Positions 24,011-51,936 of a stretch of DNA of 64,000 bases are shown here, in pieces. The notes below the pieces were generated by a model, which searched no databases, was not told the origin of the DNA, and was given only the letters and a program-made list of their open reading frames with translations. The position numbers and the translations under genes are program-made. Source of the stretch: an uncultured Planctomycetota bacterium (GTDB lineage: Bacteria; Planctomycetota; Planctomycetia; Isosphaerales; Isosphaeraceae); contig CAWJTV010000039.1 of the NCBI GenBank assembly GCA_963845755.1, positions 128,001 through 192,000 on the forward strand, given 5' to 3'. Position 1 is the stretch's first letter. Every line of letters starts with the position of its first letter.

Positions 24011-25165
24011 TCATGCGACCGCCGCGGTGATCTCGGCCAGGGCTTGGAGAAACGCCGCGATCTCCTCGGCCGTCGTGAACGGTCCGGGGCTGAGGCGGAG
24101 CGTGCCATCGGGGAAGGTGCCCAGGGTCCGGTGGATGTAGGGGGCGCAGTGGAGTCCCGGGCGGACCGCGATCTCGAAGCTGGTATCCAGGATGGCACCG
24201 ATGTCCTGGGGCGAGAGCGACTCCGGGACGATCAACGAGAGGGCGCCGACATGAGTCGCCGGGTCCCATCGGCCCGCGACGAGCCAGCCGTCGGAGTCCT
24301 CAACCCAGTCGACCACGCGTTGGAGAAGTTCGACCTCATGACGACGCAGGTTGTCCGGCCCGTGTTCGACGACCCAGGCGATACCGGCCAACAGGCCGGC
24401 AACGCCCAGGACATTGGGCGTGCCGCCTTCGAGGTGGTACGGAAGGAGGGCCGGCTGGGTCGGGCTCGAGGAATCGCCGCCGGTGCCCCCCTCTCGCCAG
24501 GGGCGGATCCGTCCGTCGGTCCGGGGCCCGACGTAGACGGCCCCGGTCCCGGTCGGGCCATAGAGAGCCTTGTGACCGGGAAAGGCCAGGATGTCGATTG
24601 CCGTCGCGCGCAGGTCGATCGGGATGACACCGGCCGACTGGGCCGCGTCGACCAGGAACAGCGCGCCGGACTCGCGCACGATCGTCGCGATCGCCTCGAC
24701 CGGCTGCACGGTCCCCAGGACGTTCGAAGCCTGGGTCATCGCGACCAGCGCGGTCCGGGGCGTGATCGCCCGCAGGATCGCATCGGGGTCCACATAACCG
24801 GCCTCGGAGGCGACTCGCGTCAGGGCGATCACGCCGGCCTTCTCCAGGGCTCGCAGTGGCCGGCTGATCGAGTTGTGCTCCAGGTCGGTCGTGACCACGT
24901 GATCGCCGGGCTGGACGATCCCCTTGATCGCGAGGTTCAGTCCGTCCGTGCAATTCATCGTGAAGATCCAGCGCTCCGGCGCCTCGCCCCGGAAGAGCTG
25001 GTTGAGGGCGTGGCGCGCGGCGTCGAGCGATTGCTCGGCGCCGATGGCCATGCGATGCCCGGCCCGGCCCGGATTCGCCAGACTCGTCCGGGCGAAGCGG
25101 TCGAGGGCCTGGTAGACCGGTTCGGGCTTCGGGAAGCTGGTTGCGGCGTTGTCGAGGTAGATCAT
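24011..25165 (-). CDS. Cysteine desulfurase family PLP enzyme (class V)
   Basis: YLDNAATS, EHNS, DAAQSAG, PGHK, GGTPN and RPGLHCAP motifs. Confidence 0.9.
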   Translation of the reverse strand: MIYLDNAATSFPKPEPVYQALDRFARTSLANPGRAGHRMAIGAEQSLDAARHALNQLFRGEAPERWIFTMNCTDGLNLAIKGIVQPGDHVVTTDLEHNSISRPLRALEKAGVIALTRVASEAGYVDPDAILRAITPRTALVAMTQASNVLGTVQPVEAIATIVRESGALFLVDAAQSAGVIPIDLRATAIDILAFPGHKALYGPTGTGAVYVGPRTDGRIRPWREGGTGGDSSSPTQPALLPYHLEGGTPNVLGVAGLLAGIAWVVEHGPDNLRRHEVELLQRVVDWVEDSDGWLVAGRWDPATHVGALSLIVPESLSPQDIGAILDTSFEIAVRPGLHCAPYIHRTLGTFPDGTLRLSPGPFTTAEEIAAFLQALAEITAAVA

Positions 25166-25257
25166 GGGTCGTATTCTTCAGTGCTCAGTGGTCAGTTAAT
25201 ATAAGATAGCCATAAATTAATGAGAATAGAATACTGAACGCCAGGGCGAAGCATTTA

Positions 25258-26298
25258 TTATGAACCGACGAACTGAGCATAAAGCGTCCGCGCCTTGGCG
25301 ATGTCATTGGTCCCCTTGATGATCGCGCGGCCGTCGGGGAAGACGGTGAACTCATAACCCTCGGTCGCGAACCGGAGCATGAAGGCGTTGTGGCGAACCT
25401 CGCCGAGCGGTCCCAGGCGCCGCGCCATCTCGGGGAAGTCGAGCGGTTCGGGACGGCGCGCGGCGACCTGGACCGCGTTGCGTCCGCAGAGGGAGGTCGT
25501 GTGCGAGCCCATCGTCCCGTCGAGCCATTCGAATCGCCTCTGCCCGCAACAGGGGCAGTCCACCTTGCCGAGCAGCCCGGCCACCTTGAGCTGCCGGAAG
25601 CTCCAGTCCCAGAGGTCGACCATGATCAAGTGGTCGTTGAGGGCTTCGAACCGGCCGGCCAGCAGCTTGATGGCCTCGATCGCCTCGAACGAGGCGATGA
25701 CCGCCACGGCCGGGCCGAGCACCCCGGCGGTCTCGCATGTCGGGGTCATGCCGGGCGGGGGCGCGGTCTCGATCAGGCACCGCAAGCACGGCGTCTTCCC
25801 CGGGATGATCGTCATCGTCTGGCCTTCGCTGCCAATCACCCCGCCGAAGATCCACGGTTTGCCCAGCTTGACTGCCGCGTCGTTGATCAGATAGCGGGTC
25901 TCGAAGTTGTCGGTCCCGTCCAGGATCAAGTCGGCGTCCCCGACCAGATCGAGGATATTGGTGTGATCGAGATCCGTCACGACCGGCTCGACCGCGATCG
26001 TGCTGTTGATCGCCCGGATCTTCCGCGCGGCGGCCTCGGCCTTGGGCAGGTTCTCGGCGACGTCGGCCTCGTCGAACAGGATCTGGCGTTGCAGGTTGTG
26101 CGTCTCGATGAAGTCGCGGTCGATGATGCGGATCATCCCGACGCCGGCCCGTGCGAGGTGATTGGCCAGCACGGTCCCCAGCGCCCCGCAGCCGCACAGG
26201 GTGACGCGGCTCTTCAACAACGCGCGCTGGCCCGATTCTCCGAGCTGCGGGAACCGGACCTGGCGGCTGTAGCGGTCGAGCGGCTCTTCTTCGGTCAT
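25258..26298 (-). CDS. ThiF/MoeB family adenylyltransferase
   Basis: RYSRQ, GCGALG, NLQRQ, DGTDNF, CLRC and CPCC motifs. Confidence 0.9.
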   Translation of the reverse strand: MTEEEPLDRYSRQVRFPQLGESGQRALLKSRVTLCGCGALGTVLANHLARAGVGMIRIIDRDFIETHNLQRQILFDEADVAENLPKAEAAARKIRAINSTIAVEPVVTDLDHTNILDLVGDADLILDGTDNFETRYLINDAAVKLGKPWIFGGVIGSEGQTMTIIPGKTPCLRCLIETAPPPGMTPTCETAGVLGPAVAVIASFEAIEAIKLLAGRFEALNDHLIMVDLWDWSFRQLKVAGLLGKVDCPCCGQRRFEWLDGTMGSHTTSLCGRNAVQVAARRPEPLDFPEMARRLGPLGEVRHNAFMLRFATEGYEFTVFPDGRAIIKGTNDIAKARTLYAQFVGS

Positions 26299-26311
26299 CG
26301 GTCCTTCCTCT

Positions 26312-26581
26312 TCAGCCGCCCGCGACGGCGGGGATGATGCTGATCTCGTCGGCCTCGGCGACCGGCGTGGCCAGATCGTCCAGATAACGGATATCTTCGT
26401 TGTTCACGTAAACATTGACGAACCGCCGCAACTCCTCGCCGTCGAAGAGCCGCTCGCGGAGCGCCGGATGCCGGGACGCCAGGTCGGCCAGGAGTTCGCC
26501 GACCGTAGACCCTGCGGCCTCCACGCGATCGAGGCCCCCGGCGTGAGGACGGAGCGGCGTCGGGATACGGACGACTGCCAT
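26312..26581 (-). CDS. MoaD/ThiS/CysO ubiquitin-like sulfur carrier
   Basis: VRIPTPLR...RRFVNVYVNNEDIR...IIPAVAGG with C-terminal GG. Confidence 0.9.
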   Translation of the reverse strand: MAVVRIPTPLRPHAGGLDRVEAAGSTVGELLADLASRHPALRERLFDGEELRRFVNVYVNNEDIRYLDDLATPVAEADEISIIPAVAGG

Positions 26582-26600
26582 GGGTGTGATCCTTGTAGAA

Positions 26601-26664
26601 GTAGGGTGCTCTGTGAGCACCGATTCTCGTCCGGAGCCATATGGGTGCTCGCAGAGCACCCTAC
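26601..26664. repeat. GTAG-type REP doublet
   Basis: GTAGGGTGCTCTGTGAGCACC ... GGTGCTCGCAGAGCACCCTAC. Confidence 0.75.
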
Positions 26665-26669
26665 GGGCG

Positions 26670-27940
26670 TTACACCGCGCCGGCAGCCATCAGGTCGGGC
26701 GAGAGGGTTTCGAGGAGCGATTCGAACTCCTCCATGGTCGGCTTGATGACGACGGGCCTGGGCATCCGTTCGAGCAGGGGTTCCTGGGTCTTGAGGCCGT
26801 TGCCGGTGATGCAGACGACGATCGAGTCATCCCGGCCGATCCGGCCCTGTTCGATGAGCTTCTGGGCGACGGCAAGGGTGACGCCCCCGGCGGTCTCGGC
26901 CCAGATGCCTTCGGTCTCGGCGAGGAGCCTCATCGCGTCGATGATGGCATCGTCGTCGACATCCTCGCTCCAGCCGCCGGTCTCCTGGATCAGTTTGGAG
27001 GCGAAGAAGCCGTCGGCCGGGTCGCCGATGGCCAGGCTCTTGGCGATCGTCTGGGGATTGCGGACCGGCTTGACCTTGGTGGCGCCGGTCTTGACCATGG
27101 CGGAGATCGGGTTGCAGCCCGTGGCCTGGGCGCCGTGCAGCCGGGTGTTGACCGGGCCGTCGAGCAGGCCGAGCAACTCGAATTCCTTGAAAGCCTTGTG
27201 GATCTTGCCGATCAGGCTGCCGCCGGCCATCGGGGCGACGACGTGATCGGGCACCCGCCAGCCCAGGTCCTCGGCGATCTCGAAGCCGACCGACTTGGAC
27301 CCCTCGGCGTAGAACGGCCGGAGATTCACGTTGACGAACCCCCAGCCGAAGCGGAACGCGATCTGGGAGCAGAGCCGGTTGACGTGGTCGTAGTTGCCAT
27401 CGATGGCGATGACCTTGGCGCCGTAGATGGTCGCGCCCAGGACCTTGCCCTGCTCGAGCCCGTCCGGGATCAGGACATAAGCCTCCAACCCGGCCGCGGC
27501 GGCGTTGGCGGCCACGCTGTTGGCCAGGTTGCCGGTCGAGGCGCAGCCCACGGTCTGGAAGCCCAGTTCGACGGCCTTGGACAAGGCCACGGCCACGACC
27601 CGGTCCTTGAACGAGAGGGTCGGATAGTTCACGGCGTCGTTCTTGATGTACAGCTCGGCGACGCCCAGCACCGGGCCAGCCGGTCGGCGCGGACCAGTGG
27701 CGTACCGCCGACATGCTGCCCCACGGTGGGCTCGCCGTCGATCGGCAGCAGCTCGCGGTAGCGCCACATCGTCCGGGGCCGCGACGCGATCGCCGCCCGG
27801 GTCATCGTCCGCGACACCTCGGCGTAGTCGTAGGTGACTTCCAGCGGACCGAAATCCTCCGTGCAGAAGTTCAGGGCTTCCTTGGGATAAATCTTGCCGC
27901 ACAGGCGGCACTTCAAACCACTCGCAGTTTCCACGGACAC
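26670..27940 (-). CDS. Threonine synthase-like PLP enzyme (frameshift near 27670)
   Basis: N-terminal CRLC/C zinc motif; YPTLSFKDR, CASTGNLA and ITGNGLK motifs. Confidence 0.88.
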
Positions 27941-27980
27941 CGGTATCACTCCCTCATTGAGGAGACGATCCGAGAACTCA

Positions 27981-28182: not shown

Positions 28183-28351
28183 CATCTTATCTGCCCCATC
28201 GGCGTCATCCTTCGGGGTTGGAGGTCGGCTTCAGCCGATCGTCATCCCGGAAAAAGACGCTGGGCGGGAGTTAGCACCAGCATTCGCCATGTTGGCGAAC
28301 CGGTTGCTGTGGCGTCGTCGGGCCCGTCCCTCAGCCACTCTGGATAAGATG
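28183..28351 (-). promoter_or_regulatory. SAM-I (S-box) riboswitch with extended P4
   Basis: Minus strand reads CATCTTATCCAGAGTGGCTGAGGGACGGGCCCGACGACGCCACAGCAACC...GGTGCTAACTCC...AGATAAGATG. P1 is a perfect 9-bp stem. Confidence 0.93.
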
Positions 28352-39442: not shown

Positions 39443-39722
39443 GAGCGCTTTACCGATGGGTTGCGCACGCAAACAGCGGATCTTCTGCGGCCTGAAGGGC
39501 CGCCGGAGCCCAGCCCGGGGTGGAAACCCCGGGACTCGGTCGCACCGCCCCGACGGGTGCACCCTGAAGGGGTGCTGGCGGGGGTCTCCTGCGGCCCTAC
39601 AGGCCGCTCGGATGCGGGTTTGCTGTCGGACCCCGGGTTTCACCCGGGGCTGGGCTCCGGCGGCCTTTCAGGCCGCAGATGATCGGCTAGCCTCGTGTGC
39701 GCAACGCAAGCGTGATGCGCTC
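39443..39722. mobile_element. 280-bp palindromic MITE flanked by TA
   Basis: TA|GAGCGC...GCGCTC|TA, imperfect TIRs of about 30 bp, long inner inverted repeat (about 39484-39679). Confidence 0.65.
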
Positions 39723-39926: not shown

Positions 39927-40817
39927 TCAGGCGACGACGCAATCGCGGCCGTCGCGCTTGGCTTGATAGAGCCGCTCGTCGGCCCGCTTGATCAACTCCA
40001 GGGGGGACACGACATCGTTCCCCTGGATCGAGGCCACCCCCAGGCTGATCGTGACCTCGTACTCGCGACCCTCGAAGATGAACGGCTGTCTCTTCACGGT
40101 CCGTCGGAGTTGATCGGACAGTGCGGCTGCCGTGGCCTGGTCCGCTTCGGTCAGGACCGCCACGAATTCCTCGCCGCCGTAGCGGGCCAGCAGATCGTCC
40201 TTGCAGATCTCCGACCGGAGGCGGCCTGCCAGTTCGCGCAACGTCAGGTCTCCGGCCAGGTGGCCCATCGTGTCGTTGATCGACTTGAAGTGATCGATAT
40301 CGAAGAGGATCAGGGCCAGCGGTCGGCTGTACCGCGCCGAGCGGTCGATCTCCCGCTGGAGGTAGTCCAACAAGTAGCGCTTGTTGTACAGGCCGGTCAG
40401 GGCGTCGAGGATCGCCAGCCGGTACAGCTCCTCGTGGTATTCGGCCTCAACATTGCCGCCGGCCAGGAAACGATACAGGCAGTTGCCGACGCGGACGTAG
40501 TCGCCATCGGCCAGGGGAGTCCGACGCGCGGGCGTGTCGTTGACGAAGGACCCGTTGGTGCTGTCCAGGTCCGTGACGAGATAACCGTCGATGTCCAGGT
40601 CGAACCGCACATGGCGGCGCGAGACCGAGTGATCGACCACGGTGATATCACAGTCATCGCCGCGGCCCAGGACGATCGTTTCGTTCCCCAGGAGGTGGCG
40701 GGTGCCCATGGCCAACCCGGTCGGGTAAATATGGACCAGGCAGGCATTCCTGCAGGTTCGGGATAGAGGTCGCTTCGACTCGACCTGCTGCGTCACAGGC
40801 TGGATTCTCATGGCCAT
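39927..40817 (-). CDS. FHA-domain diguanylate cyclase
   Basis: FHA: LGRG, SVSRRH, STNG. GGDEF: DALTGLYN, DIDHFK.IND, RYGGEEF. Confidence 0.92.
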   Translation of the reverse strand: MAMRIQPVTQQVESKRPLSRTCRNACLVHIYPTGLAMGTRHLLGNETIVLGRGDDCDITVVDHSVSRRHVRFDLDIDGYLVTDLDSTNGSFVNDTPARRTPLADGDYVRVGNCLYRFLAGGNVEAEYHEELYRLAILDALTGLYNKRYLLDYLQREIDRSARYSRPLALILFDIDHFKSINDTMGHLAGDLTLRELAGRLRSEICKDDLLARYGGEEFVAVLTEADQATAAALSDQLRRTVKRQPFIFEGREYEVTISLGVASIQGNDVVSPLELIKRADERLYQAKRDGRDCVVA

Positions 40818-40921
40818 CCCTCACACCCAACGGCCGATGCGGAACGCTTCCCTCCGGATGACCGACCGATCGAGCCCAGTGATTGTGGTGTCCCCACCCA
40901 AGTCTAGATCATGAGTGGCGA

Positions 40922-42607
40922 TCAACGGCGGGGATAATGGGGAGAGTAACCACTTTCCGGGGCGTGGAGGGCGAACCAGACCGATTCCCCAACCCCGCGC
41001 GCCTCGATGGAATAGATCCGTTCTCGGGTGCGGAAGAAGGCGTCGATGACGGCCCGATCCCACTGGCGATCCCGGCCGAGGGCCAGGTTCTGTTCAATCT
41101 GCTCGCGTGCCAGCGGGGCCCGGTAGGGACGGGCCGTGCTCATGGCATCATAGCTGTCCGCGACCGCCAGGATCCGCGCCAGCAGGGGGATCGATTCCCC
41201 TTTCAGGCCGTGGGGATATCCCGTGCCGTCATAGCGCTCGTGGTGAGAAAGGACCGAAGGCAACAGGTGGGAAATCCCGCCGAAACCCTCGAGGATCCGG
41301 CATCCGATCAGGACGTGCTGGGTGATCTGCAAGAATTCCTCGGACGTGAGCGACCCGCGCTTGCCGAGGACGGAATCGGCGACGCCGATCTTGCCGATGT
41401 CGTGGAGCAGGCCGGCGAGGTAGACGTCCCCCAACTCCGCCTCGGGCAGACCCAGCTCGCGAGCCAGCTCGACGGCGACCCGCGCCACGCGTTCGCTGTG
41501 GCCGCACGTGTACGGATCCTTGGCGTCGATGGCCGCGGTCAGGGAGCGGACCAGCCCCGCGAAGAGGTCCTGGACCTGGGATTGACGGCGCGCGCTGCGC
41601 GCGTGCAGTCCCAGCAGCGACGCGAAGGGCCTCAGGAGGGCCAGGTCGATGCGACGGAAGGGGACGATGGCCGGGCCATTGCTGCGAGGCGGATAAGGCG
41701 CGGTGGCGGGTCGTTCGGCTCCCGCGGCCGGCCCGTCCCGTTCCGGCGATCGATCCGAGGGGGCTTCTTCGTTCTTGTTCAGGGCGATCAGCCAGCCGCC
41801 GGCGTTCTTGTCAACGACGGACAGGGCCATCAGGCTGATGATCCCCGGGAACCGATCTCCCAGTCCGCTCAGCGGGGCCTCGTTGAGGATCAGGTATCCC
41901 GAGGGATCCCACTCGGGGTTTCGCGCGATCCATCGAGCCAGCTCGCGGCTATCCCGGGCGGAGGGACGGCGGGCTCCCTGGATGACGACCGTTTCGCTCT
42001 CCTGCGATGGCACCCAGATCAGAGTCTCCGCGCGAAGCAGGGCCGCGGCTCGCCGAAGGATGCGGTCCGGATCGGTGCTCGATATCCCGGGGCTTCCCAG
42101 GCTGGTCAGGAGGTCGGTCAGCTCCCGAGACCCCTCCAGGAGGGTCTTGAGCTGCTGAGCGTGGAGCGGGTCGCTCCGGTGCGGCATCATCGAGCCGCCC
42201 GTGAACGATAACCGGGAGTGGACCGCCTGGAGCCATTTCTGGATGCGTGCCTGCTCCAGACGAGCGGCCTGAGCGGTTCGGGCCAGGGCGGGGAGGTCGC
42301 CGATCGCAACCAGCGTCGTCCCATCGGCCTCCTGGATCGGCAGCACCAGCCGAAAGCACTCGACGCTCCTGAGGCTGACATGGGGTCGTCCCTCGGCGGC
42401 GATCGCCAGGATTTCCGGCGAGACGCCTGGCTGGGGCGCGGCCGGCGATCCGCTCGCATCCCCGTCGCCGAGTGGCTCTCCGGTCGAGCCATCGTAGAAC
42501 GAGAAGGGCGTGGAGAACTCTTCATGCAGGGCCAGGGATAGCGCCTTGACGCGATCGTCCGTGATCGTGCGGCGGTCCCGGACAACGGGGTTACGGAGCC
42601 CTAACAT
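40922..42607 (-). CDS. HD-GYP c-di-GMP phosphodiesterase with N-terminal sensor (GAF-like) region
   Basis: DAKDPYT.GHS.RV, LHDIGKIG, HHERYDGTGYP and AVADSYDAM motifs. Confidence 0.9.
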   Translation of the reverse strand: MLGLRNPVVRDRRTITDDRVKALSLALHEEFSTPFSFYDGSTGEPLGDGDASGSPAAPQPGVSPEILAIAAEGRPHVSLRSVECFRLVLPIQEADGTTLVAIGDLPALARTAQAARLEQARIQKWLQAVHSRLSFTGGSMMPHRSDPLHAQQLKTLLEGSRELTDLLTSLGSPGISSTDPDRILRRAAALLRAETLIWVPSQESETVVIQGARRPSARDSRELARWIARNPEWDPSGYLILNEAPLSGLGDRFPGIISLMALSVVDKNAGGWLIALNKNEEAPSDRSPERDGPAAGAERPATAPYPPRSNGPAIVPFRRIDLALLRPFASLLGLHARSARRQSQVQDLFAGLVRSLTAAIDAKDPYTCGHSERVARVAVELARELGLPEAELGDVYLAGLLHDIGKIGVADSVLGKRGSLTSEEFLQITQHVLIGCRILEGFGGISHLLPSVLSHHERYDGTGYPHGLKGESIPLLARILAVADSYDAMSTARPYRAPLAREQIEQNLALGRDRQWDRAVIDAFFRTRERIYSIEARGVGESVWFALHAPESGYSPHYPRR

Positions 42608-42638
42608 CTTGATTTCCCGAACAGATTGGTCGCCGGTG

Positions 42639-45600
42639 TCACGGCTGGGGTGGAGAAGGGGTTGAGGCTCCGGCCACATCCTCGGAGTCCGTCCCGAGCG
42701 ATTTCGCCTTTGCCATCCGTCGCGAAAACCGGGGATCCCGCCGGAGCACGGCCAGGTCGGGATCTTCATCGGCCCTCGGCCCGGAGCCGAGGGACCAGGC
42801 CCGTTCCAGGAGATCGAACGCCTGGTCGAGGGCACGAGGAGACGGGGCGGCTTCCGCCGCCCGGGCCGCGACGCACGCGGCCGCATAGAGCGTCTCGCCG
42901 GACCCGGGCTCGCGGTCCAGGCACCAGTTGATATCCCGGGTGGCACGGTCCCAATGGCCCTGTCGGGACAAGACCACCGCCCGATAGCGCCGGGCCTCGA
43001 TGAAACCCGGGTTCGCCGCCAGGGCCTGGTCGAAGGATCGACTGGCCGAGGCCAGTTCCCCGCGATTCATGGCCAGCATCGCGCGGCCATAGTGGGCCTG
43101 GGGCTGTTGAGGATCCTTGCGGAGCACTTCGTCGAAGGCGGCCTGCGCCCGCTCGGGCAGGCGAGCGGACACGGCGAAGCCGTAAGTCCAGTTGATGCGG
43201 ATGCGCCGGGTCGGATTCCGGCACCATCGCGAACGCCTGGCGGAACGCCGCGTCGGCCTCGGCGTGTCGCCCCACCCCCTCCAGGGCGAGGCCCCGGCCG
43301 GCGACGATCGCGGCGTCAGCCGGCCCGTCGAGGGCGAGGGCCCGGTCGAAATCGATCAGCGCCGGCCCATACTGCCGGAGCTCCACCCGGGCGAGGGCGC
43401 GATTCGCCAGGGCGGCCACGAACCCGGGGTCGCATTTCAGGGCAGCCGTGTAGTCGTTGATGGCGTCGCCCTTCATCCCCATGCGGTCCAGGACGGCGCC
43501 CCGATTGAAATGACCCCAGGGGTGCTCCGGCCACAGGCCAGTGCAGGTGCCGAAATCGCCGAGTGCCTGGGCATACTCGCCCAGTTCCAGGTGGCAGATC
43601 CCTCTCTGGAGGGCGGACCAGTAATGCCGCGGTTGGAGGTTCAGGGCCTCGTCCAGCTCAGCGATGGCCCTGCGGTATCCGTCGCCGCCTCCCCGCCGTG
43701 CGTAGGAGATCGCCAGGAGATAATGGTCCTGGGCGCTCGTGGCCGGGATCGTGTCGGCCCGGTCCCGGGCGGCCCTGGCTGGCTCGGTCTTGCCGAGCTG
43801 GCTCCAGTAACTGGCGCGGTCGACCCAGAGCGCCTTGGAGGGTTCCAGGCCGTGGATCGCCTCGGCCTCGTCGAGCAGTGCGAGCGAGCGGACCAGCGTT
43901 GGCCGATCGCCCGGGGCCAGGCGGACGCGGGCCCCCGCCAGGAGCAGGAGCAACTCGCGATGGTCCTCGGCGACCTGTCGGCGATCCTCCGGCGCCAGCC
44001 GCCCCCAGTCCGGATGCGCCTCGTCGAGCCGGCCGTCCGGGGACCGGTACAGGGCCAGCGTCTGCTCGCAGACGGCGATCCCCTGATGCAGGTGATTGCG
44101 ATGTCCCAGGATCGTGTTGACCAGGCATAAGGCGCGGATCGTGCCGGCGTCGTGGGCGCGCTTCCGTCCCTCGGCCTGGGCCTGCCCCAGTCGCGTGCTG
44201 GCCTCGGCCAGGTGCGATTGGGCGCCGATCAGCGCCACGCCGGCGACCAGGAGGGCCGCCAGCGCCGCCCCGAAGACGGAACCCGATGTCATCAGCCGCG
44301 GATGGCGACGGAAGAACTTTCGAATCCGATCCACCCGGCTCAATTCCGGGGCATATCTCAGCGGGCGGTCGTCCAGGAAGCGGCGCAGGTCGTCGGCCAG
44401 ATGGTCGCCCTGCTGATAGCGCCGCGCGGGATCGGGGTCGAGGCATTTACGGACGATGCTCTCCAGGCTCCAGGGGACATCCCGCCGGACCTGCCGCAAG
44501 GAGGGGGCTTTCTTGTTGCGCTCGACGGCCATCGTCTCGATCTGGGTGGTGAGGGCCGAATAGCTGGCACCCTGTTCGAACAGGCGCTCGCCGGTCACCA
44601 TCTCGGCCAGGACCAGGCCGAACGAGTACAGGTCCGACCGCCGATCGACGCTCCGGATCAGTTCCGAGGTGCGGTGCAGGAGGGCGGCGAGATGTTCGGG
44701 GGCCGCGTAGGCCACCGTCCCGCCGAGGATGGCGACGGTGTTGTCGGATGCCATCTCCTGGGCCACGTTGAAGTCCAGCAGGAATGGCTGCCCCTCGGCG
44801 CTGAGCAAGATGTTCGACGGCTTGATGTCCCGGTGGAGGATCCCCCGCTGATGGGCGTGATGGAGTCCCTCGGCCAGTTGGGCCGCGATCCACGCGACCG
44901 CCTTGTAGTAGCTTAGCCCGCGCAGGAAGGCCAGGAGGGCTTGCGCCTCCGGCGGCGGCTCCTGGGCGGACGGTCCGGACCGATCGACGCTCCCCGGCTG
45001 TTGGCTCACCGCCGTCGGCAACATCGGGGAGCCGATCGACTCGAGGGCCTCGACCAGTTGCGCGCCGTGGATCGGCGGCACCTGCCCATCCCAGAGCCGT
45101 TCCAGGACGCTGGAGAGGGTCGCGCCGCCGAAATAGGGCATGCAGACCGCCCGGAGGCCGGCTTCCTGATCCTCGTGGACCGAGAAGATCGGTACGATGT
45201 TGGTGTGCTGCAACCGGGCCAGGGTCTGGTGCTCGGTCCCTTCGGTGGCGGAGATCTTCAGGACCACGGGGCGACAGGCCAGGTCGCACTGCTCGGCGAG
45301 GTACACGCTGGCGAAGGCGCCGCGGCCCAGTTGATGGCGGAGGCGGAAGCCGAAGAGTTCCTCCCCCTCGGCGACGAGCCGCATCAGTCGTTCCTGGGTC
45401 CGTCTCCTCGCGCCCATCGTGCGGATGAGGTCCTGGTGCCGCACCAGGGTGCCCAGCATGCGGGCGTCCTCGGGTACGCGGTCCTGGCCGTCGTCCGGGC
45501 GAGGCGCCTGCCCCGGCTTCCGACGCAGGAAGACCTCCGCGACGAGCTGGCTGGCGACCCCCGTGTCGGTCGCGGGGTCGACCGGCCTGGGCTCGAGGTC

Positions 45601-45696
45601 ATGTTCTGGCGGAGGCGTGGCCTCCGCGGCGTCGGGCTCGGAGGACCGCATCCTCCAGGTCTGCGTGTGATCCGCCCGTGCCGATCGTTCGCTCAT
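42639..45696 (-). CDS. Hanks-type Ser/Thr kinase with TM helix and C-terminal TPR repeats (frameshift near 43200)
   Basis: LGRGAFASVY, VVLK, HRDIKPSN, LDFN and GTVAYAAPE motifs; TM helix; many TPRs. Confidence 0.9.
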
Positions 45697-48600
45697 GCCT
45701 CGACCCTCCTCATCGCCGCGGGCCGGTGCCGTCGCAGGATCATGCCCGGCCTGGCACAACTCCGCCTCTCCACGCGGCGTCCATCCCGGTGGACGAGCCC
45801 GCGACATCGCGCGTATACCGCCAGGGCGACACCGGTGAATGCGAGGATCAAGCCCCGGGTCCGCTCCCCATCGGACTCGCTCGGCGGCTCGGATTGGGCG
45901 TCGCTCGGCTTCGCGTCACTCGGGGGCGTGCTCGACTGCGCCTCGCCTCGGGGTTCAGGGATCGGGAACGGCTGTCCTTCGACCTCCCCGATCCCGGCGG
46001 CGAGCCGCCATCGAGAGCTCCCCGATCCCGGCGGCGAGCGCCATCGAGCGCTTCCCCAGGCGAGCCAACAGCACTCCACAATCCGGAACCGCGATCGTCG
46101 GGTACTTGACCGGCCCGGGTTCGCTGGGAGTCGCAGCGACCTCCTGGCCCGGTTCGAGCCAGCTCAACGAGGTGCTCACGACGATCAGTCCGGCCATCGC
46201 GGCAGACTGCGAGGCGGACGTGTTCGACAGGGCGAGTTGAGCCGTGGCCGTCGAGGCGAAGCTCGGGGCGACCACGCCGCCCATCGGGCTGGCGGCCAGG
46301 GCGACCACGTCCGTGGAGGTCACGCCGTAGGTAAGCGGGTCACCCTGGAGCTGGGGCGGGATCGCGATCGCGAGAACGGCCGAACTCGGCGCGATCGTCG
46401 AGGGATCGGTGCCGGTGGACGGGGGATCGACGGGGGACGGGCCCGTCACCGGCGGCGGAATCACCGGCGGCGGAATCACCGGCGGCGGCGGGGTCGGAGA
46501 CGTGGGAGGCGCGACGCTACTGAGCTGGATCGCGACCGCGGGTGCCGAGCCCGAGACCAAGGGCGGCGCGTTGTCGTTCTCCGAGCTGAAGGTCAGGCTG
46601 ACCTGGTAGGAGATGTTGGCCGCCTGCTGCTGGTTCCAACCGGATACCGTGAGTTGATAGGTCCCGGGGGCGAGATCGCCATACATCAGCGTCCCGCCGA
46701 ACGAGTTCATCACCACGCTCTGCCCCGAAGCATCGGTCAACGACAAAGCGGCCACCGCGGGCAGGTTATCGCCCGAAAGCGTGAACGTGTAATTCTCGCT
46801 CATGAGGACCTGGAACTGGTACGCGTCCTGCGTATCCAGAGGTGCCTGGCTGGGGTCCTGGCTGAAATCGCGCGTGATGGTGACCCCGGCCGCGAGCTCG
46901 TTCGGGAAGAGGACACCAAGGTCCTGGGGCTGGCCGTTGTCGTCGTTGAACGGCTGGGCGCTCCACTCCAGGGGGTTCCCGTCGGTCCCGCGCGGGGGCG
47001 CGTTGACGGTGAACGGGACCACGTAGTCGCCGCTCGGGTCGTTGCCGACGAGCGGATTCCCGCCCAGGTCGGTCAGCCCGGCGGCTCCGGAGAGGTGGAG
47101 CTGGTAATCGCCGTTGGGCAACGCGTCGAGCATGACGAACGTGGCCTGATTGGTCGCGGAGTCGTAGGACTCGAAGCGCGGGAGGTACTTGGTCCCGTCG
47201 GCCGCCTCGACGTAGATTCCCGAGATGTTGTCCTGGGAGGTCACCTGGTATGTCTCGTAGGCCAGTTGCGCGATGTTCATCGGCTCGTCGAACGTGACGG
47301 TCAGTTGCGACGGGGGCTGGGTGAGGGTCGCCCCGGGGCTCGGGGTGGTCGTGACGACATGGGGGGGATTGGGGGCCGGTTGGACAAGCAGATTCAGGAC
47401 GTAAGGGCCCGTGCTCGAACCGAGCGAACCGCTGTGCGAGACGGTGGGGTCGAACAGGCCGGGGGTCCCGGGAGGGAGGCCCTCCAGGGGCGAAGGTGTG
47501 TTCGAGCCGCTGGCGACGGCGACGTAATAATCGCCCGCCGTCAGGCTCGCGAACAGGGCGGAGTCGGTGTACAGCGGCGTCGAGAACCCGTCGGTCGTCG
47601 TCGCGGGATCGTAGGTATTGTTATCGCCCGCGACGAACTGGAGGCTGTTATCAACGGGATCGAGTTTGAACAGGCTGACTCCGGGATCCAGCGGCGAGCC
47701 GATGCGACCGGCGAAGACCTCCGCCACCATCGCGTAATTCCCGGTCCCGGTAATGGTGAAATGATACATGTCCACCTGGTTGCCGGGGTTGCTGGGATCG
47801 TAGGGCCAGTTGAAACTTGACGGATCGGGGAAATTGGCGGGGTTGTAGAACGGGTCGTCGCCGATCGTGCCGGCGACCTGCACCAGTCGGCCCGAGGTCA
47901 GGTTGCCCAGGTCCTGGGCGGTGGCCGCGGTGTCGTCGACCGGGGCGTCGGCGCCGGTGCGGCCCTCGATCCCGTCGACCTGGAACGGGATCGTGATGTC
48001 CTGGCCCTGGGGATGGGCGGCATCGGCCCCGAGGTCGTTCCCCGAGGGGTCGGCAAGTGCCGGCGAGCCGTTCGACGCTCTGGCCGGTGAGGAGCACCTC
48101 GTAATAGCCGGGGGCCAGGGGGCTGGCCGGGAAGAGTTGCAGCTCGTTGACGCCCTCGTAGTGCAGGATGACTCCGGAAGAATCGCCGCCCCACGGGGGC
48201 AAATCCTCGACCGCCGAGGGGAAGTTGACCGACCCCAGGGAGACCTGCTGACCGTCCTGGTCGAAGGCTCCATCAGGGCTGTAGACCAACTGCACCGTCT
48301 GGCCGTTGAGTACGGTCCAGGGATCGAGTGGACCGCTCATTTCGATCCGGATCGCCAGCGGCGATGCGCTCAGGATGGCGCCGGGTGCCGGATCGCTGGT
48401 CAACACCTGCGGGCCGGTGGCCGGCGCGAGCCCGGCATCGGAGACGAGGAGGCTGAGGACGAAATCGCCAGTGCTCCCCGGGAGGCCGCTGCCGGCCAGG
48501 AGTGGGTTGAAATGAAGGTTGCCGTCGCCGCTGACGGCCAGATAGTACGTCCCGATGCCCAGCAGTTCATTGAACGAGGCGACGCCGCCATCGGTCTTGC

Positions 48601-49033
48601 CATCGACCTGCGCCAGCAGGCGATGGCCGTCCGGGTCGTAGGGGTCCCCGAAATCGTAGGGGTCGTTGTTGAACAGGCTGATGACCCCGTTGAACGACGA
48701 GGACGGCTGCTGTCGCATGAGCTCGAAGTTGACGCGGGCGGGGCCATCGAGCGTGAAACTGTACCATTCCACGTCGACGGCGCCCTGGGGACCGTTGCCG
48801 ATGGAGCCGTACTCCTGAAGCCCCGTGCCGGTGCTGAGATGCCCCAGGTCGATGGCCTGGTCCAGGGTCTCGTTGGGCAGTTCGGCCGGTCCGATGAGGG
48901 GGCTTGTTCCGAGGGGCGCCGCCATCAGGCTCCTCGACTCGAGCCGCTCGAATCGCAGCCGCGCGGCGTTCCGGCGCGATGGCCACGGCCTCGATGAGAG
49001 TCGAAATCCTCGCAGACCGCCCGGTTTTGACAC
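45693..49033 (-). CDS. Large membrane-anchored surface protein with PPC-like and Ig-like domains (frameshifts near 48075 and 46040; start uncertain)
   Basis: ERLESRSLMA export motif; repeated D.D.Y.FT...G.YY.AV blocks; Pro-rich linker; C-terminal TM GLILAFTGVALAVYA plus basic tail. Confidence 0.75.
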
Positions 49034-49063
49034 TCCTCGCTCAACACCACCGCCGGTTGCCTC

Positions 49064-49186
49064 CTCGTTCCCACGCTCCGCGTGGGAATGCCGTCTGGGA
49101 CGCTCCGCGTCCTCTTCCCGGACGGAGACCAACGACGCGACGCGGAGCGTCGAACCCGGCATTCCCACGCTCCGCGTGGGAACGAG
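49064..49186. repeat. REP-like nested palindrome
   Basis: CTCGTTCCCACGCTCCGCGTGGGAATGCC ... GGCATTCCCACGCTCCGCGTGGGAACGAG. Confidence 0.8.
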
Positions 49187-49415
49187 AGTGGGCCGCCTTC
49201 TTCCCGTGGTGGTGTTCGGCGAGGAGTGTCCCGGTTTTCGCTCGATTGCAACCACCGGTGATGGCCTCATAATCGGCTGCCTTTAACTCGGATTCCTGGC
49301 GAGAAGACCGGGAGAATTCGGTGCGATCGGGGCATCGCGTTGGGGTCGGATCGGGATGTTAATCCGCGGCCTCGCGACCGGGGACCACCCCGAGCGGTCC
49401 CCGTCCGTCGCCGCT

Positions 49416-51512
49416 TTAGACCTGGATCGTGATCGGGTCGACCGCGATGCTGAAGACGCCGGCCTGGTTGACGGCCTCGAAGGAGAGCCGATGGCGACCC
49501 GGCGTGAGTGCGGGGCTGCTGAACGACCAATTCCCCGCGGAATTGACCGAGGCGATCCCGATGATCAGGCCGTCCTCGATCACCACCACCTGGGAGTTCG
49601 CCGTCGCGGTCCCGCTCAAGCTGGGCGTGGCGACGGTATTGAAGGACCCATCGGGGTTGGTGCTGAGGATGCTGGCGGCCGTGAGGCTCGCGCTCGAGAC
49701 GGTCGCGGCCGGCGCCGACCAGGGCGGCGGGAGCAGGCTCACGGAGTAAGTCGCCGAGGGGCCGCTCACGCTGCCGGCGACGTCGGTCGCCTGGGCCGTG
49801 ATGGCGTAGGTGCCGCCGATGCCGAGGCTGGCCAGGGGGGTAGAGAAGTTCCAATCCCCATCCGCATTGGTCGTGGTGCTGCCGATCGCCGTCGATCCCC
49901 AGTAGAACGTGACCTGACTATAGGGTTGTGCGGTGCCGAACGCGAACGGATTGGCCGAGGTGGTGGTGATCGTGGTGCCCGTCATCGTGCCGGGGCTGAT
50001 GCCCGTGACAATCGGCGCCGGCGTCGGCGCGGTGTCGATCATCACCGCATAGGGAAGCGAGAAGGGGCTGACATTGCCGTACGGGTCGGTCGCCGTGGCG
50101 GTGATGGCGTAGGTGCCGTCGGGGAGGGCCGTCCCCGTGTTGTTGAACGTCCAGGTGTTGCTGCTGTTGGCCGTCGTCGTGCCGATGGGGGACCCGTTGT
50201 CGTACACCGTGACGGTCTCGCCGCTGAGCGCGGTGCCCGAGATGGAGATCCGGTTGACGTCGGTGATGCCGTCGCTGTTGCTGAGGCCATTGTCGGGGCC
50301 GATGCCCGTGATGGCCGGCGTCGAGCCGGACAGGCCGAATCCGTACTGCGCCTGCCCGCCCCCCGCGTGCAGCGGGGTGCCGTTCGGATAGGCGATGATC
50401 GGCGAGGCCTCCGTGGGCGGGGTCGTGCCGTTGAAGCTCAGGCCCAGGGCATAATCGCCCGTGCTGAAGACGGACGTGTCGGCGCCCTGCACCTCGATGT
50501 AGTATCGCTGGCCGGCGACGGCATTGGGGAGGGTCACGTTGAGCGTCGTGCCGTACTGGCCGAGGCCATTGGCCGAGCCGACGATCGTCTGCATGTCGGA
50601 GGCGTAGACCGTTACCTTCGGCGACAGCAGGCTCAGGCCCTGGCTCTGCACCGAGACCTCCATCGGGCCGGACATCCCCGCCGGCGTGTCCACGCTGAAG
50701 AATTCCGGCTGGCCGAGGTTGGCGATGTCGAGGTTGTAGGCCAGGGCGGTGAGTGTGCTCGGGTTGATCAGGCTGTCCAGGTTGGCCGCCGTGAGGACAG
50801 TGGCGTTGAGGCCGGCGTAGGCGTCCGGAGCCCGCGCCCCGCCGTAGAGGCTATCGATGCCGACGATGTCGTCGGCCGCCAGGCCCTTCTTGATGCCGTT
50901 GTAGACCGGATACATGGCGTTGCTGGCGGAGGTGCTGCTCTCGCCCAGGCCCAGCGCGTGGCCGAACTCGTGCATCGCCACGGTGGCCAGGTCGTACGTC
51001 TGACCGATGTTCCAGGCCGCGCCGGTGTTGAACTCCATGTCGCCGGCGATCGAGAAGTTGTTGATCGACGGCGGCAGGTTGGTCCAGGCCAGGGTCGAGC
51101 TCTCGAAGTTATAGCCGCCGATGCGGATGTCGCCCATGCCGGGGTCGCCCTCCTGGTAGTTGCCGCCGCCCTCCGGCGCCCCGTCGTCCGGGACGACGAC
51201 GAGGTTGATGTTGGTCTGCTTGGCCCAGACCTGCGCGGCCTGGAGGATCTGATTCTCCCAGCGTCCGGCCAGATAGGGGTTCTTGTTGAAGGTCGAGAAC
51301 AGGTTGCTGGTCGTGCCGTTGCCAAGGCTGGTCCCATCCGGCATGAAGCTGATCGTGACGACCTGGGGGTTTATCCAGGCACCGCCGGTGGCCGAGTAGA
51401 GCACGACTCGGGACTCGAGCTGCTCGAGTCCAGGCCGGCTTCTCCGAGACTGAGGGCGCTGGGCCGAGCGAGCCGCCATCCGCTTTTCGAACCAACGTTG
51501 AAGCGATTTCAC
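49416..51512 (-). CDS. Secreted matrixin (M10-like) metalloprotease with Ig-like domains
   Basis: LEQLESRVVL export motif; GDIRIG; HEFGHALGL; Met-turn AMYP; C-terminal Ig-like repeats. Confidence 0.85.
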   Translation of the reverse strand: MKSLQRWFEKRMAARSAQRPQSRRSRPGLEQLESRVVLYSATGGAWINPQVVTISFMPDGTSLGNGTTSNLFSTFNKNPYLAGRWENQILQAAQVWAKQTNINLVVVPDDGAPEGGGNYQEGDPGMGDIRIGGYNFESSTLAWTNLPPSINNFSIAGDMEFNTGAAWNIGQTYDLATVAMHEFGHALGLGESSTSASNAMYPVYNGIKKGLAADDIVGIDSLYGGARAPDAYAGLNATVLTAANLDSLINPSTLTALAYNLDIANLGQPEFFSVDTPAGMSGPMEVSVQSQGLSLLSPKVTVYASDMQTIVGSANGLGQYGTTLNVTLPNAVAGQRYYIEVQGADTSVFSTGDYALGLSFNGTTPPTEASPIIAYPNGTPLHAGGGQAQYGFGLSGSTPAITGIGPDNGLSNSDGITDVNRISISGTALSGETVTVYDNGSPIGTTTANSSNTWTFNNTGTALPDGTYAITATATDPYGNVSPFSLPYAVMIDTAPTPAPIVTGISPGTMTGTTITTTSANPFAFGTAQPYSQVTFYWGSTAIGSTTTNADGDWNFSTPLASLGIGGTYAITAQATDVAGSVSGPSATYSVSLLPPPWSAPAATVSSASLTAASILSTNPDGSFNTVATPSLSGTATANSQVVVIEDGLIIGIASVNSAGNWSFSSPALTPGRHRLSFEAVNQAGVFSIAVDPITIQV

Positions 51513-51841
51513 GACATCCCCCGATGTGATGGTGGATTCGGGCTGAGGACTTGACCGAGCTCGCAAGCGGCGACCGGGAACCATTCCTTGGCCGGGCCGA
51601 TGACAGACATCGGCGGGCGGAGGACTGCCGTCCGGCCGAGTGCGAGGCGTCCCCGTGATGGAGAACGACCGGCGTGTGATCCCCGGACCGGACTACGTCC
51701 ACACACGCGACGATCGTGATTCAGGGAGGAGACGACGGGCTTCACCGGAACAGCCTTCTGGTCTCAGGTCACCGAGCCGAGGGGTGGACGACGAACCGTT
51801 CAACCGGATTCGTCCACGAAACGCCCTTGCTTGCTGCTCAG

Positions 51842-51936
51842 TCCTTCGGCAACCTGGCAAGCCGAGAGACGTTGAAAGGCTCTCGGCCCCATGGCTTTGC
51901 GTCCCCGCCTTACGACGGGTTTGCCCGTGCGAAAGA
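51842..51936 (-). promoter_or_regulatory. c-di-GMP-I (GEMM-I) riboswitch
   Basis: Minus strand reads GGGCAAACCCGTC-GTAA-GGCGGGGACGCAAAGCC...GCCAGGTTGCCGAAGG, with a GNRA loop and P1 CTTTCG/CGAAGG. Confidence 0.9.

Follow-up and report, generated by a model that had tools for sequence, protein, structure and literature searches.

The cluster and its genes

Within a window of 64,000 nucleotides from the genome of an uncultured bacterium of the Isosphaeraceae (Planctomycetota; contig CAWJTV010000039.1, positions 128,001 to 192,000), five genes on the minus strand follow a riboswitch for cyclic di-GMP (c-di-GMP), a second messenger. They encode a putative matrixin-type protease, a predicted surface protein, a Ser/Thr kinase, and two enzymes of c-di-GMP turnover: an HD-GYP phosphodiesterase and an FHA-GGDEF diguanylate cyclase. 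We find that this cluster is real, that it is built from known parts, and that it is conserved in two families of the Planctomycetia as two modules rather than as one fixed operon. Apparently, it has not been described before. A preliminary description of the region listed the same six elements, and all of them lie where it placed them. The features are as follows (positions count from the first nucleotide of the window):

51844..51934, minus strand: c-di-GMP-I riboswitch aptamer of the G20, A47, C92 type (Rfam, reading of positions, and alignments); the leader extends about 330 nt to the matrixin start
49416..51515, minus strand: matrixin (M10) protein with a PPC domain and three immunoglobulin-like (Ig) domains, 699 amino acids, GTG start (Pfam, NCBIfam); export motif LExLExRxV at 51428-51399
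50940..50972, minus strand: zinc motif of the matrixin, HEFGHALGLGE, with His-Glu-His intact and Glu as the third ligand (His in karilysin)
49060..49230, no strand assigned: intergenic repeat element with inverted ends, with about 60-65 similar places in the genome, outside the conserved system
45693..49033, minus strand: surface protein, predicted PPC-Ig-PPC-Ig-PPC followed by a stalk rich in Pro, Ser, and Thr, a hydrophobic segment (45854-45804), and a basic tail; export motif at 48961-48923
42639..45696, minus strand: Ser/Thr kinase with a transmembrane (TM) helix (44277-44221) and an array of tetratricopeptide repeats (TPR); motifs GxGxFA, VVLK, HRDIKPSN, DFN, and GT..Y.APE
40922..42607, minus strand: GAF-GAF-HD-GYP phosphodiesterase, 561 amino acids, with Tyr at the position of Glu185 of PmGH and an RPYR motif for guanine binding
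39927..40817, minus strand: diguanylate cyclase with an N-terminal tail, FHA, and GGDEF, 296 amino acids, DgcB-like; GGEEF and, at the inhibitory site (I-site), CKDD
40791..40793, minus strand: codon for Thr9 in the cyclase tail (PVTQQV), a candidate phosphorylation site that is invariant in 19 of 19 family copies

The domains named in the preliminary description (matrixin-Ig, surface protein, kinase-TPR, HD-GYP, and FHA-GGDEF) are borne out by Pfam and NCBIfam. Pfam finds Peptidase_M10 with Big_13 and Big_6, Big_5 with CopC, Pkinase with TPR, HD_5, and FHA with GGDEF, in the order of the genes; NCBIfam adds Ca2+-stabilised adhesin repeats in the matrixin protein and FDP-family repeats in the surface protein. 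Read directly, the stop codon of the surface-protein gene overlaps the start codon of the kinase gene in ATGA (45696-45693), and the gap between the kinase and HD-GYP genes is 31 bp, both as first described.

Relative to other members of their families, the surface-protein gene is broken twice, by one extra base at about 48072 and by a switch of frame near 46040-46090, and the kinase gene is broken once, by two missing bases near 43203. The extra base is absent from three of four aligned relatives, and all four have two further bases near 43203. Contigs from three DNA sequencing runs cover this region in short pieces. In one of them, from run X2, a base at 48071 is likewise missing, and relatives such as locus L047 have intact open reading frames, so the three frameshifts are likely errors of assembly.

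Conservation of the two modules

Of 104 loci that we examined, 94 were distinct once 7 duplicates and 3 weak fragments had been removed. The surface protein has strong relatives (E < 1e-40) in 26 of 121 Isosphaeraceae genomes and weak ones in 19 more. Profile searches also detect this protein in f5, a second Planctomycetia family that is probably the Gemmataceae (29 of 252 genomes), and in 36 metagenome loci. In a shallow test of 400 further genomes from across the phylum, in which only two candidates per genome were scored, the profile matched none at a threshold of 1e-30; a separate search returned one record titled Planctomyces sp. and one titled Planctomycetaceae.

In the first module, the kinase gene lies directly after the surface-protein gene in 74 of 75 assessable loci and is divergent from it in the other (the contig ends at this point in 19; our script missed the window and L046, with their overlapping stop codon, and we corrected the count by hand). 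An enzyme of c-di-GMP turnover is adjacent in 54 of the 61 loci in which this could be assessed. The commonest partner is HD-GYP alone (30 loci), and there are 3 loci with a short HD-GYP, 13 with FHA-GGDEF, and 8 with both enzymes, 2 of which have only a remnant of the HD-GYP. The second module consists of the matrixin gene and its riboswitch: a matrixin gene is adjacent in 68 of 79 loci and may be co-oriented (45), divergent (22), or convergent (1).

The preliminary description looked to conserved gene order across the phylum, and this holds for the linkage of modules in two families. It does not hold for the five-gene form, which is a minority arrangement (8 of 94 loci). The aptamer and all five genes are present in the window, L044, L046, L058, and L071; the HD-GYP is a remnant in L045 and L048; and L065 has the five genes without an aptamer. 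The genome that contains the window (G000) also has a second cassette (C34:548328-559142, L039), with a matrixin, a surface protein, a kinase, and a shortened HD-GYP, but neither aptamer nor cyclase.

The kinase and the phosphodiesterase

Across 80 aligned rows, the kinase family retains the glycine loop, the catalytic lysine, the glutamate of helix αC, HRD, a DFG-like motif, and APE, which makes these Hanks-type kinases. The DFG position reads DFN in 74 of 76 rows without a gap there, and a hydrophobic helix follows the sequence RRHP. All three HD-GYP genes of this genome adjoin the three top-scoring kinases of the cassette subfamily, whereas only 3 of its 285 kinase-like loci have any HD-GYP or GGDEF gene within 6 kb, so this linkage is more than chance. 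We also note that a paralogous kinase-TM-TPR gene is divergent from an HD-GYP gene in at least five family genomes (G000, on contig C28, and G025, G026, G030, and G036). The pair in G000 is at C28:68597-73332 (L040, L041), and others are at L036, L037, L038, and L025. In C28, a gene for an extracytoplasmic function (ECF) sigma factor comes after the kinase of the pair.

In the phosphodiesterase, the metal-binding and GYP residues are invariant across 20 rows, and HD, HHE, GYP, and the RxY[K/R] motif (as RPYR) are all present. Its predicted GAF-GAF-HD-GYP structure matches GAF-HD-GYP with Z 23.1 and a root-mean-square deviation (rmsd) of 5.8 over 335 aligned residues. It has KDPYT where PmGH has KDPET, that is, Tyr at Glu185, rather than the Glu or Asp of trinuclear enzymes. 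According to the accessible part of bioRxiv 10.1101/2021.11.05.467447, RxY[K/R] marks specificity for c-di-GMP and the residue at PmGH position 185 decides the type of metal site. The enzyme is likely specific for c-di-GMP and, because of the Tyr, its site is likely binuclear, with the reaction stopping at pGpG. The fold and the RxY[K/R] motif are common to PmGH (PDB 4MCW) and V-cGAP3 (5Z7C). In contrast to those proteins, this one has two predicted GAF-like domains as well as the Tyr, and what is accessible of their descriptions reports no link to a kinase.

We built a tree of the kinases from 71 rows, leaving out 3 near-duplicates and 6 rows with low coverage. Kinases with HD-GYP partners are spread throughout the tree and into the outgroup, and those with cyclase partners form two clades, with support values of 1.0 and 0.90. 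Within the cyclase clade of the Isosphaeraceae, the HD-GYP gene was lost or cut several times. From this, HD-GYP appears to be ancestral in the cassette, and at least two lineages appear to have gained the cyclase, often in place of the HD-GYP. The cluster in the window, with both enzymes, is an intermediate state.

The cyclase and its tail

The cyclase is found in 19 of the 121 family genomes, with one copy in each, and all 19 copies are directly behind a cassette kinase or its HD-GYP. This includes a cultured type strain, Singulisphaera acidiphila DSM 18658 (L054). The best match in the PDB is DgcB (6HBZ; E 9e-50 over residues 26-292), a cyclase of Bdellovibrio bacteriovorus (Bd0742) with the same tail-FHA-GGDEF architecture. 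In the accessible part of PMC6733907, the FHA domain of DgcB binds the protein's own tail at phosphorylated Thr14, the +3 residue is crucial, and the locked tail activates the enzyme; the kinase is given there as not identified, and only a phosphatase shares the operon.

Signalling from the kinase to the FHA domain had been proposed, and the GR, SxxH, and NG residues of the FHA domain had been noted as intact. They are indeed intact (GR, SRRH, and STNG), and the alignments support the proposal and point to a specific candidate site: Thr9, in what would be a self-peptide of the DgcB type. This Thr is invariant in the 19 family cyclases, with Val (18) or Ile (1) at +3, and Arg17 and Pro18 of the tail are invariant too. 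As in DgcB, the residue at +3 is hydrophobic and the FHA cleft is intact. The tail Thr is 43 residues from the FHA Arg, against 47 in DgcB. Unlike DgcB, which has Glu at -2 and Ser at +1, the tail reads PVTQQV; the copy in the window has lost the RxxD I-site; and a kinase is encoded next door. The FHA domain by itself best matches GarA and OdhI (cited with PknG in the accessible part of PMC6733907), in which FHA also binds its own phosphorylated N-terminal tail, although those proteins have metabolic targets and no cyclase domain.

The I-site reads CKDD in the window, and some relatives keep RxxD. An association between loss of the I-site and presence of HD-GYP was suggested by 8 copies and rejected on 22: RRDD occurs with HD-GYP in L156 and L161, and CKDD without HD-GYP in L158 and L159. 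GGDEF proteins of the Hypr type, which make cyclic GMP-AMP (cGAMP), are recognised by Ser in place of Asp344 of PleD. The cyclase has GHLAGD where PleD has GHDIGD, and the Asp is present in all rows.

A related FHA-GGDEF protein is nearly universal in f5 (217 of 252 genomes). It is mostly stand-alone (L173-L201) and has a highly conserved MEKxTETWVT tail. In 30 of 30 copies, the offset of the Thr equals that in the cassette cyclases, but its flanks (ETWVT) differ. The rewritten tail flanks of the cassette cyclases would fit with their answering to a dedicated kinase. In a tree of 51 cyclases, rooted on a distant paralogue, 16 full-length Isosphaeraceae copies form one clade among the f5 cyclases. 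Because this clade stands apart from two small clades of f5 cassette cyclases, the tree suggests that the cyclase was recruited into the cassette at least twice.

The riboswitch goes with the matrixin

The aptamer scores 66.2 bits with RF01051 (gathering threshold 35) and 62.8 bits with RF03167 (threshold 59; clan CL00126). It is the sole RF01051 match in this 14.3-Mb genome (150 of 637 candidates were scored, and nhmmer agrees). The preliminary description read it as sensing c-di-GMP rather than cGAMP, and we reach the same result: it has G and A at positions 20 and 47 of Vc2, and C92 as read from the alignment. G20 marks recognition of c-di-GMP, and A20 of cGAMP, in the accessible part of PMC6140456. 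Because of G20 and A47, we classify the aptamer by its residues as standard c-di-GMP-I, although the GGC model scores highest. One other cassette aptamer (L121:4630-4712) has A at position 20 and is a variant of the cGAMP type. Scans of the leader for a promoter or an intrinsic terminator found nothing above shuffled sequences and no terminator on the minus strand; in alignments, the sequence downstream of the aptamer shows just a weakly conserved hairpin.

Among 33 aptamers at cassette loci, 30 are within 700 nt 5' of a matrixin gene. (Of the others, one is at a contig end, one is 1.7 kb away, and one is partial and elsewhere.) None of the 11 loci without a matrixin has an aptamer. Ten loci have both an aptamer and an inverted or convergent matrixin: the aptamer is directly before the matrixin in 8 and directly before the surface-protein and kinase genes in none. 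So the idea that c-di-GMP feeds back on the whole operon, which was part of the original proposal, is not supported in that form: the aptamer goes with the matrixin, and only where the genes are co-oriented could c-di-GMP feed back on all five.

We also searched for aptamers across genomes without anchoring on the cluster, using profiles (a loose regular expression was tried and given up as too unspecific genome-wide). There are 21 matches in 19 of the 121 family genomes, and because 19 of these precede a cassette matrixin, this gene is, by sequence match, nearly the whole c-di-GMP-I riboswitch regulon of Isosphaeraceae genomes. The other two (L202:975-1496, L219:936-1325) precede small ORFs; one of these was tested and had PilZ look-alikes in Atlas and no Pfam match. 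In f5, by comparison, c-di-GMP-I aptamers are present in 112 of 151 genomes, and in the loci scanned (19 of 30) they precede Flp pilins (5), TadE (1), matrixins (2), and an SdrD-B protein (1). Attachment functions are therefore indicated for f5, and this aptamer-led gene set is apparently a regulon without an earlier description. Genes for ClpS, for a protein like di-haem peroxidases, and for other secreted proteins of no named family also follow f5 aptamers (L223-L252).

The surface protein and the matrixin

At the N-terminus of both the surface-protein and the matrixin families, the LExR motif is invariant or nearly so; the accessible part of PMC8567305 describes an N-terminal motif of the type RRLxxExLExRxLL as a probable planctomycete export signal. 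Planc_extracel (PF07595) matches the surface protein weakly (E 0.0036; score 17.4, cut-off 25.5). Foldseek on the whole structural model gave generic beta-sandwich matches only, and a VIA search resolved the domains as PPC-Ig-PPC-Ig-PPC, with similarity to a collagen-binding PPC domain (Z 12.3, rmsd 1.9, 101 aligned) and to CopC (Z 12.7, rmsd 2.2, 101 aligned). The repeats also match NF038127. After them come a variable stalk rich in Pro, Ser, and Thr, a moderately hydrophobic segment, and basic residues. From the export motif and the moderate TM segment, we infer that the protein is at the surface. Its tail had been put forward as a substrate of the kinase and is a poor candidate: tails are 12-93 residues long and variable, and several contain no Ser or Thr. 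A complex prediction for the TPR region and the first three surface-protein domains, using alignments of L047, scored 0.00, which weighs neither way. The Pro-Pro repeats of the stalk were considered as a cleavage site like that of PPEP-1 (see below) and rejected as not conserved.

TPR proteins act in export or assembly in PEP-CTERM systems. So the cluster could instead control export: the C-terminal segment would be a sorting signal, the TPR domain would chaperone export or assembly, and the kinase would report the state of export to c-di-GMP. The C-terminal segments are short and weakly hydrophobic and are followed by basic residues; the TPRs match PrsT weakly; the overlap of stop and start codons in the window suggests translational coupling; and the founding member of NF038127, DVUA0089, belongs to a sigma54 regulon for exopolysaccharide and biofilm (accessible part of PMC4641369). 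But the hydrophobic segment is not preceded by a PEP motif or any other conserved one, the matches to PrsT are far below the cut-off, and we saw no sortase-like gene in the loci, albeit without a profile search aimed at one. We consider export control very improbable.

The matrixin scores 54.9 bits with Peptidase_M10 (cut-off 24) and has both HExxH and the Met-turn. The best solved relatives of its catalytic domain are karilysin and the matrix metalloproteinases (PDB 2XS3, 8B2Q; E 5e-25), which share HExxH, the Met-turn, and helix C. Unlike them, it has Glu rather than His as the third ligand, so it departs from HExxHxxGxxH/D, and it adds the planctomycete export motif and PPC and Ig domains. 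A distant matrixin gene paired with a PPC-repeat gene, without a kinase, is widespread: we saw this in 9 of 10 weak-hit loci that we fetched. Examples are G000:C11:81914-84850 (L042), L043, L143-L147, and L149-L152, and in G025 some 8 kb separate it from the divergent pair of kinase and HD-GYP genes. The recurrence of this pair without a kinase favours a functional tie between the two proteins.

A proposed mechanism and its rivals

We lean slightly towards the view that the cluster is one unit of two modules, in which a sensor made of the surface protein and the kinase sets the level of c-di-GMP and the riboswitch converts this level into expression of the matrixin. Signalling would run from the outside in: the PPC/Ig protein, predicted to be anchored in the membrane, and the kinase-TM-TPR protein would sense a state of the surface, and the kinase would phosphorylate the adjacent enzymes, namely the cyclase at Thr9, its best-supported target, and probably the GAF-GAF-HD-GYP protein. 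The riboswitch would then turn the c-di-GMP level into expression of the matrixin-Ig protein, which is predicted to be secreted and would remodel the surface of the cell so that it attaches or is released. The loop would close if the matrixin cut the stalk of the surface protein, and this is the weakest step. Where a cyclase has taken the place of the phosphodiesterase, the output would flip from lowering c-di-GMP to raising it.

The steps do not all deserve the same belief. Gene linkage, the intact motifs of the kinase, cyclase, and phosphodiesterase, the invariant Thr, and the type of the aptamer and its position before the matrixin are seen in the sequence; we infer where the proteins lie, what they bind, and that phosphorylation, proteolysis, and feedback take place. 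Phosphorylation of Thr9 by the cassette kinase seems to us, by a little, the better guess. Activation of the kinase through the surface protein falls somewhat short of an even bet, and control of the HD-GYP by the kinase is a similarly tentative idea. It is rather unlikely that the matrixin cleaves the stalk and so closes the loop. And we are decidedly doubtful about the boldest version, a new class of transmembrane signalling in which the PPC/Ig protein serves a TPR receptor kinase as ligand or co-receptor, this kinase directly phosphorylates both enzymes, a riboswitch-led Glu-matrixin sheds the surface protein, and the enzyme swap flips the sign.

Several observations weigh against the two-module unit. 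The loci are related by descent, so our counts are not of independent events, and the kinase tree is only weakly supported at its deep nodes. No c-di-GMP enzyme is nearby in 7 of 61 assessable loci, and no aptamer is detectable in 38 of the 68 loci with a matrixin. Three Singulisphaera-type genomes have the surface protein, kinase, and cyclase without an adjacent matrixin or aptamer, and only two more distant matrixins elsewhere, so the signalling does not need the matrixin. There is no kinase within 1.5 kb of 29 stand-alone f5 cyclases, so cyclases of this kind can be served by kinases encoded elsewhere. In the surface protein, the hydrophobic segment near the C-terminus qualifies as a TM helix in 16 of 46 relatives with a strict cut and in 36 of 46 with a looser one (counted by hand), and no cleavage motif is conserved in the stalk across aligned relatives. 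As for the matrixin, the third zinc ligand among 52 relatives is Glu in 28, His in 20, Gln in 2, Asp in 1, and Ser in 1, and 7 of the 52 have Glu at the Met-turn.

The exchangeable or missing output genes, the mostly unlinked f5 cyclases, the 285 kinase-like loci of this genome, any of which could act on the cyclase tail, and the HD-GYP's own predicted GAF sensors would all be expected if the cluster were an island of surface and biofilm genes that is co-inherited without direct wiring. The enzymes would then serve the global pool of c-di-GMP in response to other inputs, such as GAF ligands or other kinases, and the kinase would have unrelated substrates. What argues against this is that every family cyclase is behind a cassette kinase (19 of 19) and that cassette cyclases have rewritten tail flanks. 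Also, the kinase-HD-GYP pairing survives an inversion (L103) and recurs in the paralogous divergent pair. We regard an unwired island as improbable.

Because many of these relatives lack His as the third ligand and 7 of them have lost the usual Met-turn residue, some of the matrixins may be inactive. It has also to be considered that the matrixin is a zinc-binding adhesin, weakly proteolytic or not at all, which the riboswitch simply switches on and which cleaves nothing. Its C-terminal repeats match NF033510, the Ca2+-stabilised adhesin repeat, and its partner is without a conserved cleavage site. On the other hand, HExxH, Gly189, Tyr205, and the Asp-Asp of helix C are invariant in 29 of 29 aligned matrixins, the His ligand is kept in those 20 relatives, and in many relatives the Ig repeats are missing, so that just the catalytic and PPC domains are left. 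We think it quite improbable that the protein is just an adhesin; a matrixin with Glu as its third ligand is somewhat more likely than not to be an active protease.

Relation to known systems

The preliminary description likened the cluster to systems that release adhesins, such as LapA/LapG. The functional resemblance loosely holds, but there is a closer analogue: in C. difficile, a class I c-di-GMP riboswitch leads the gene for the secreted zinc metalloprotease ZmpI/PPEP-1 (CD2830), which is beside the gene for an anchored adhesin, CD2831 (accessible part of PMC6366702). The likeness is in a riboswitch-led zinc metalloprotease next to a surface protein. The differences are that the protease here is a matrixin (homology is not expected), that the cluster also holds genes for a kinase and for enzymes of c-di-GMP turnover, and that there is no second riboswitch on the surface-protein gene.

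In Pseudomonas, LapD is an inside-out protein receptor, LapG is a cysteine protease, and LapA is a large surface protein with Ig repeats. There too, c-di-GMP is tied to a protease and an Ig-repeat surface protein, whereas here an RNA would control the protease, and the protein in the membrane is a Ser/Thr kinase with a predicted outside-in direction. None of the five proteins belongs to the LapD receptor or LapG families; the only match to LapD is at the level of GGDEF and far below the cut-off. By analogy, then, the cluster works like a union of DgcB, ZmpI/PPEP-1, and, loosely, LapA/LapG, and belongs to neither of the two systems for adhesin release.

On the plasmid pDV of D. vulgaris (L112:20000-26907), DVUA0089 is followed by a substrate-binding protein, a PAS protein, a response regulator, and an HD-domain protein. 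As with our surface protein, the founding member of NF038127 is upstream of a co-oriented run of sensor and HD-type genes, but the input there is two-component rather than a Ser/Thr kinase, and as this is a single example, the link may be chance.

We found no description of the cluster in the open-licence literature (main texts, without supplements). PMC7159879, as far as it is accessible, treats other systems, and a term search of a 2025 review of the phylum (PMC12673574) found neither c-di-GMP nor kinase among its words.

Other elements in the window and genome

A second intergenic element with inverted ends, at 39488-39670, includes an Rfam match to Acido-Lenti-1. A SAM-I (S-adenosylmethionine) riboswitch at 28238-28350 is upstream of a run of minus-strand genes (24014-27953). 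An identical stretch of 90 bases beginning TTCCCATGGAGGC is on at least 15 contigs of the genome and is probably the end of an insertion sequence.

Implications

With a kinase gene linked to the cyclase gene in all 19 instances, the question of the partner kinase of DgcB-type cyclases becomes testable. A matrixin with Glu as the third zinc ligand is of enzymological interest in itself, and the swap of phosphodiesterase for cyclase is a natural experiment in the rewiring of a circuit. If the two-module unit is correct, a Ser/Thr receptor kinase would have its own dedicated path to the turnover of c-di-GMP, and a small number of the hundreds of planctomycete kinases would gain a function. The unit would also give a first handle on how c-di-GMP controls attachment in the Planctomycetota.

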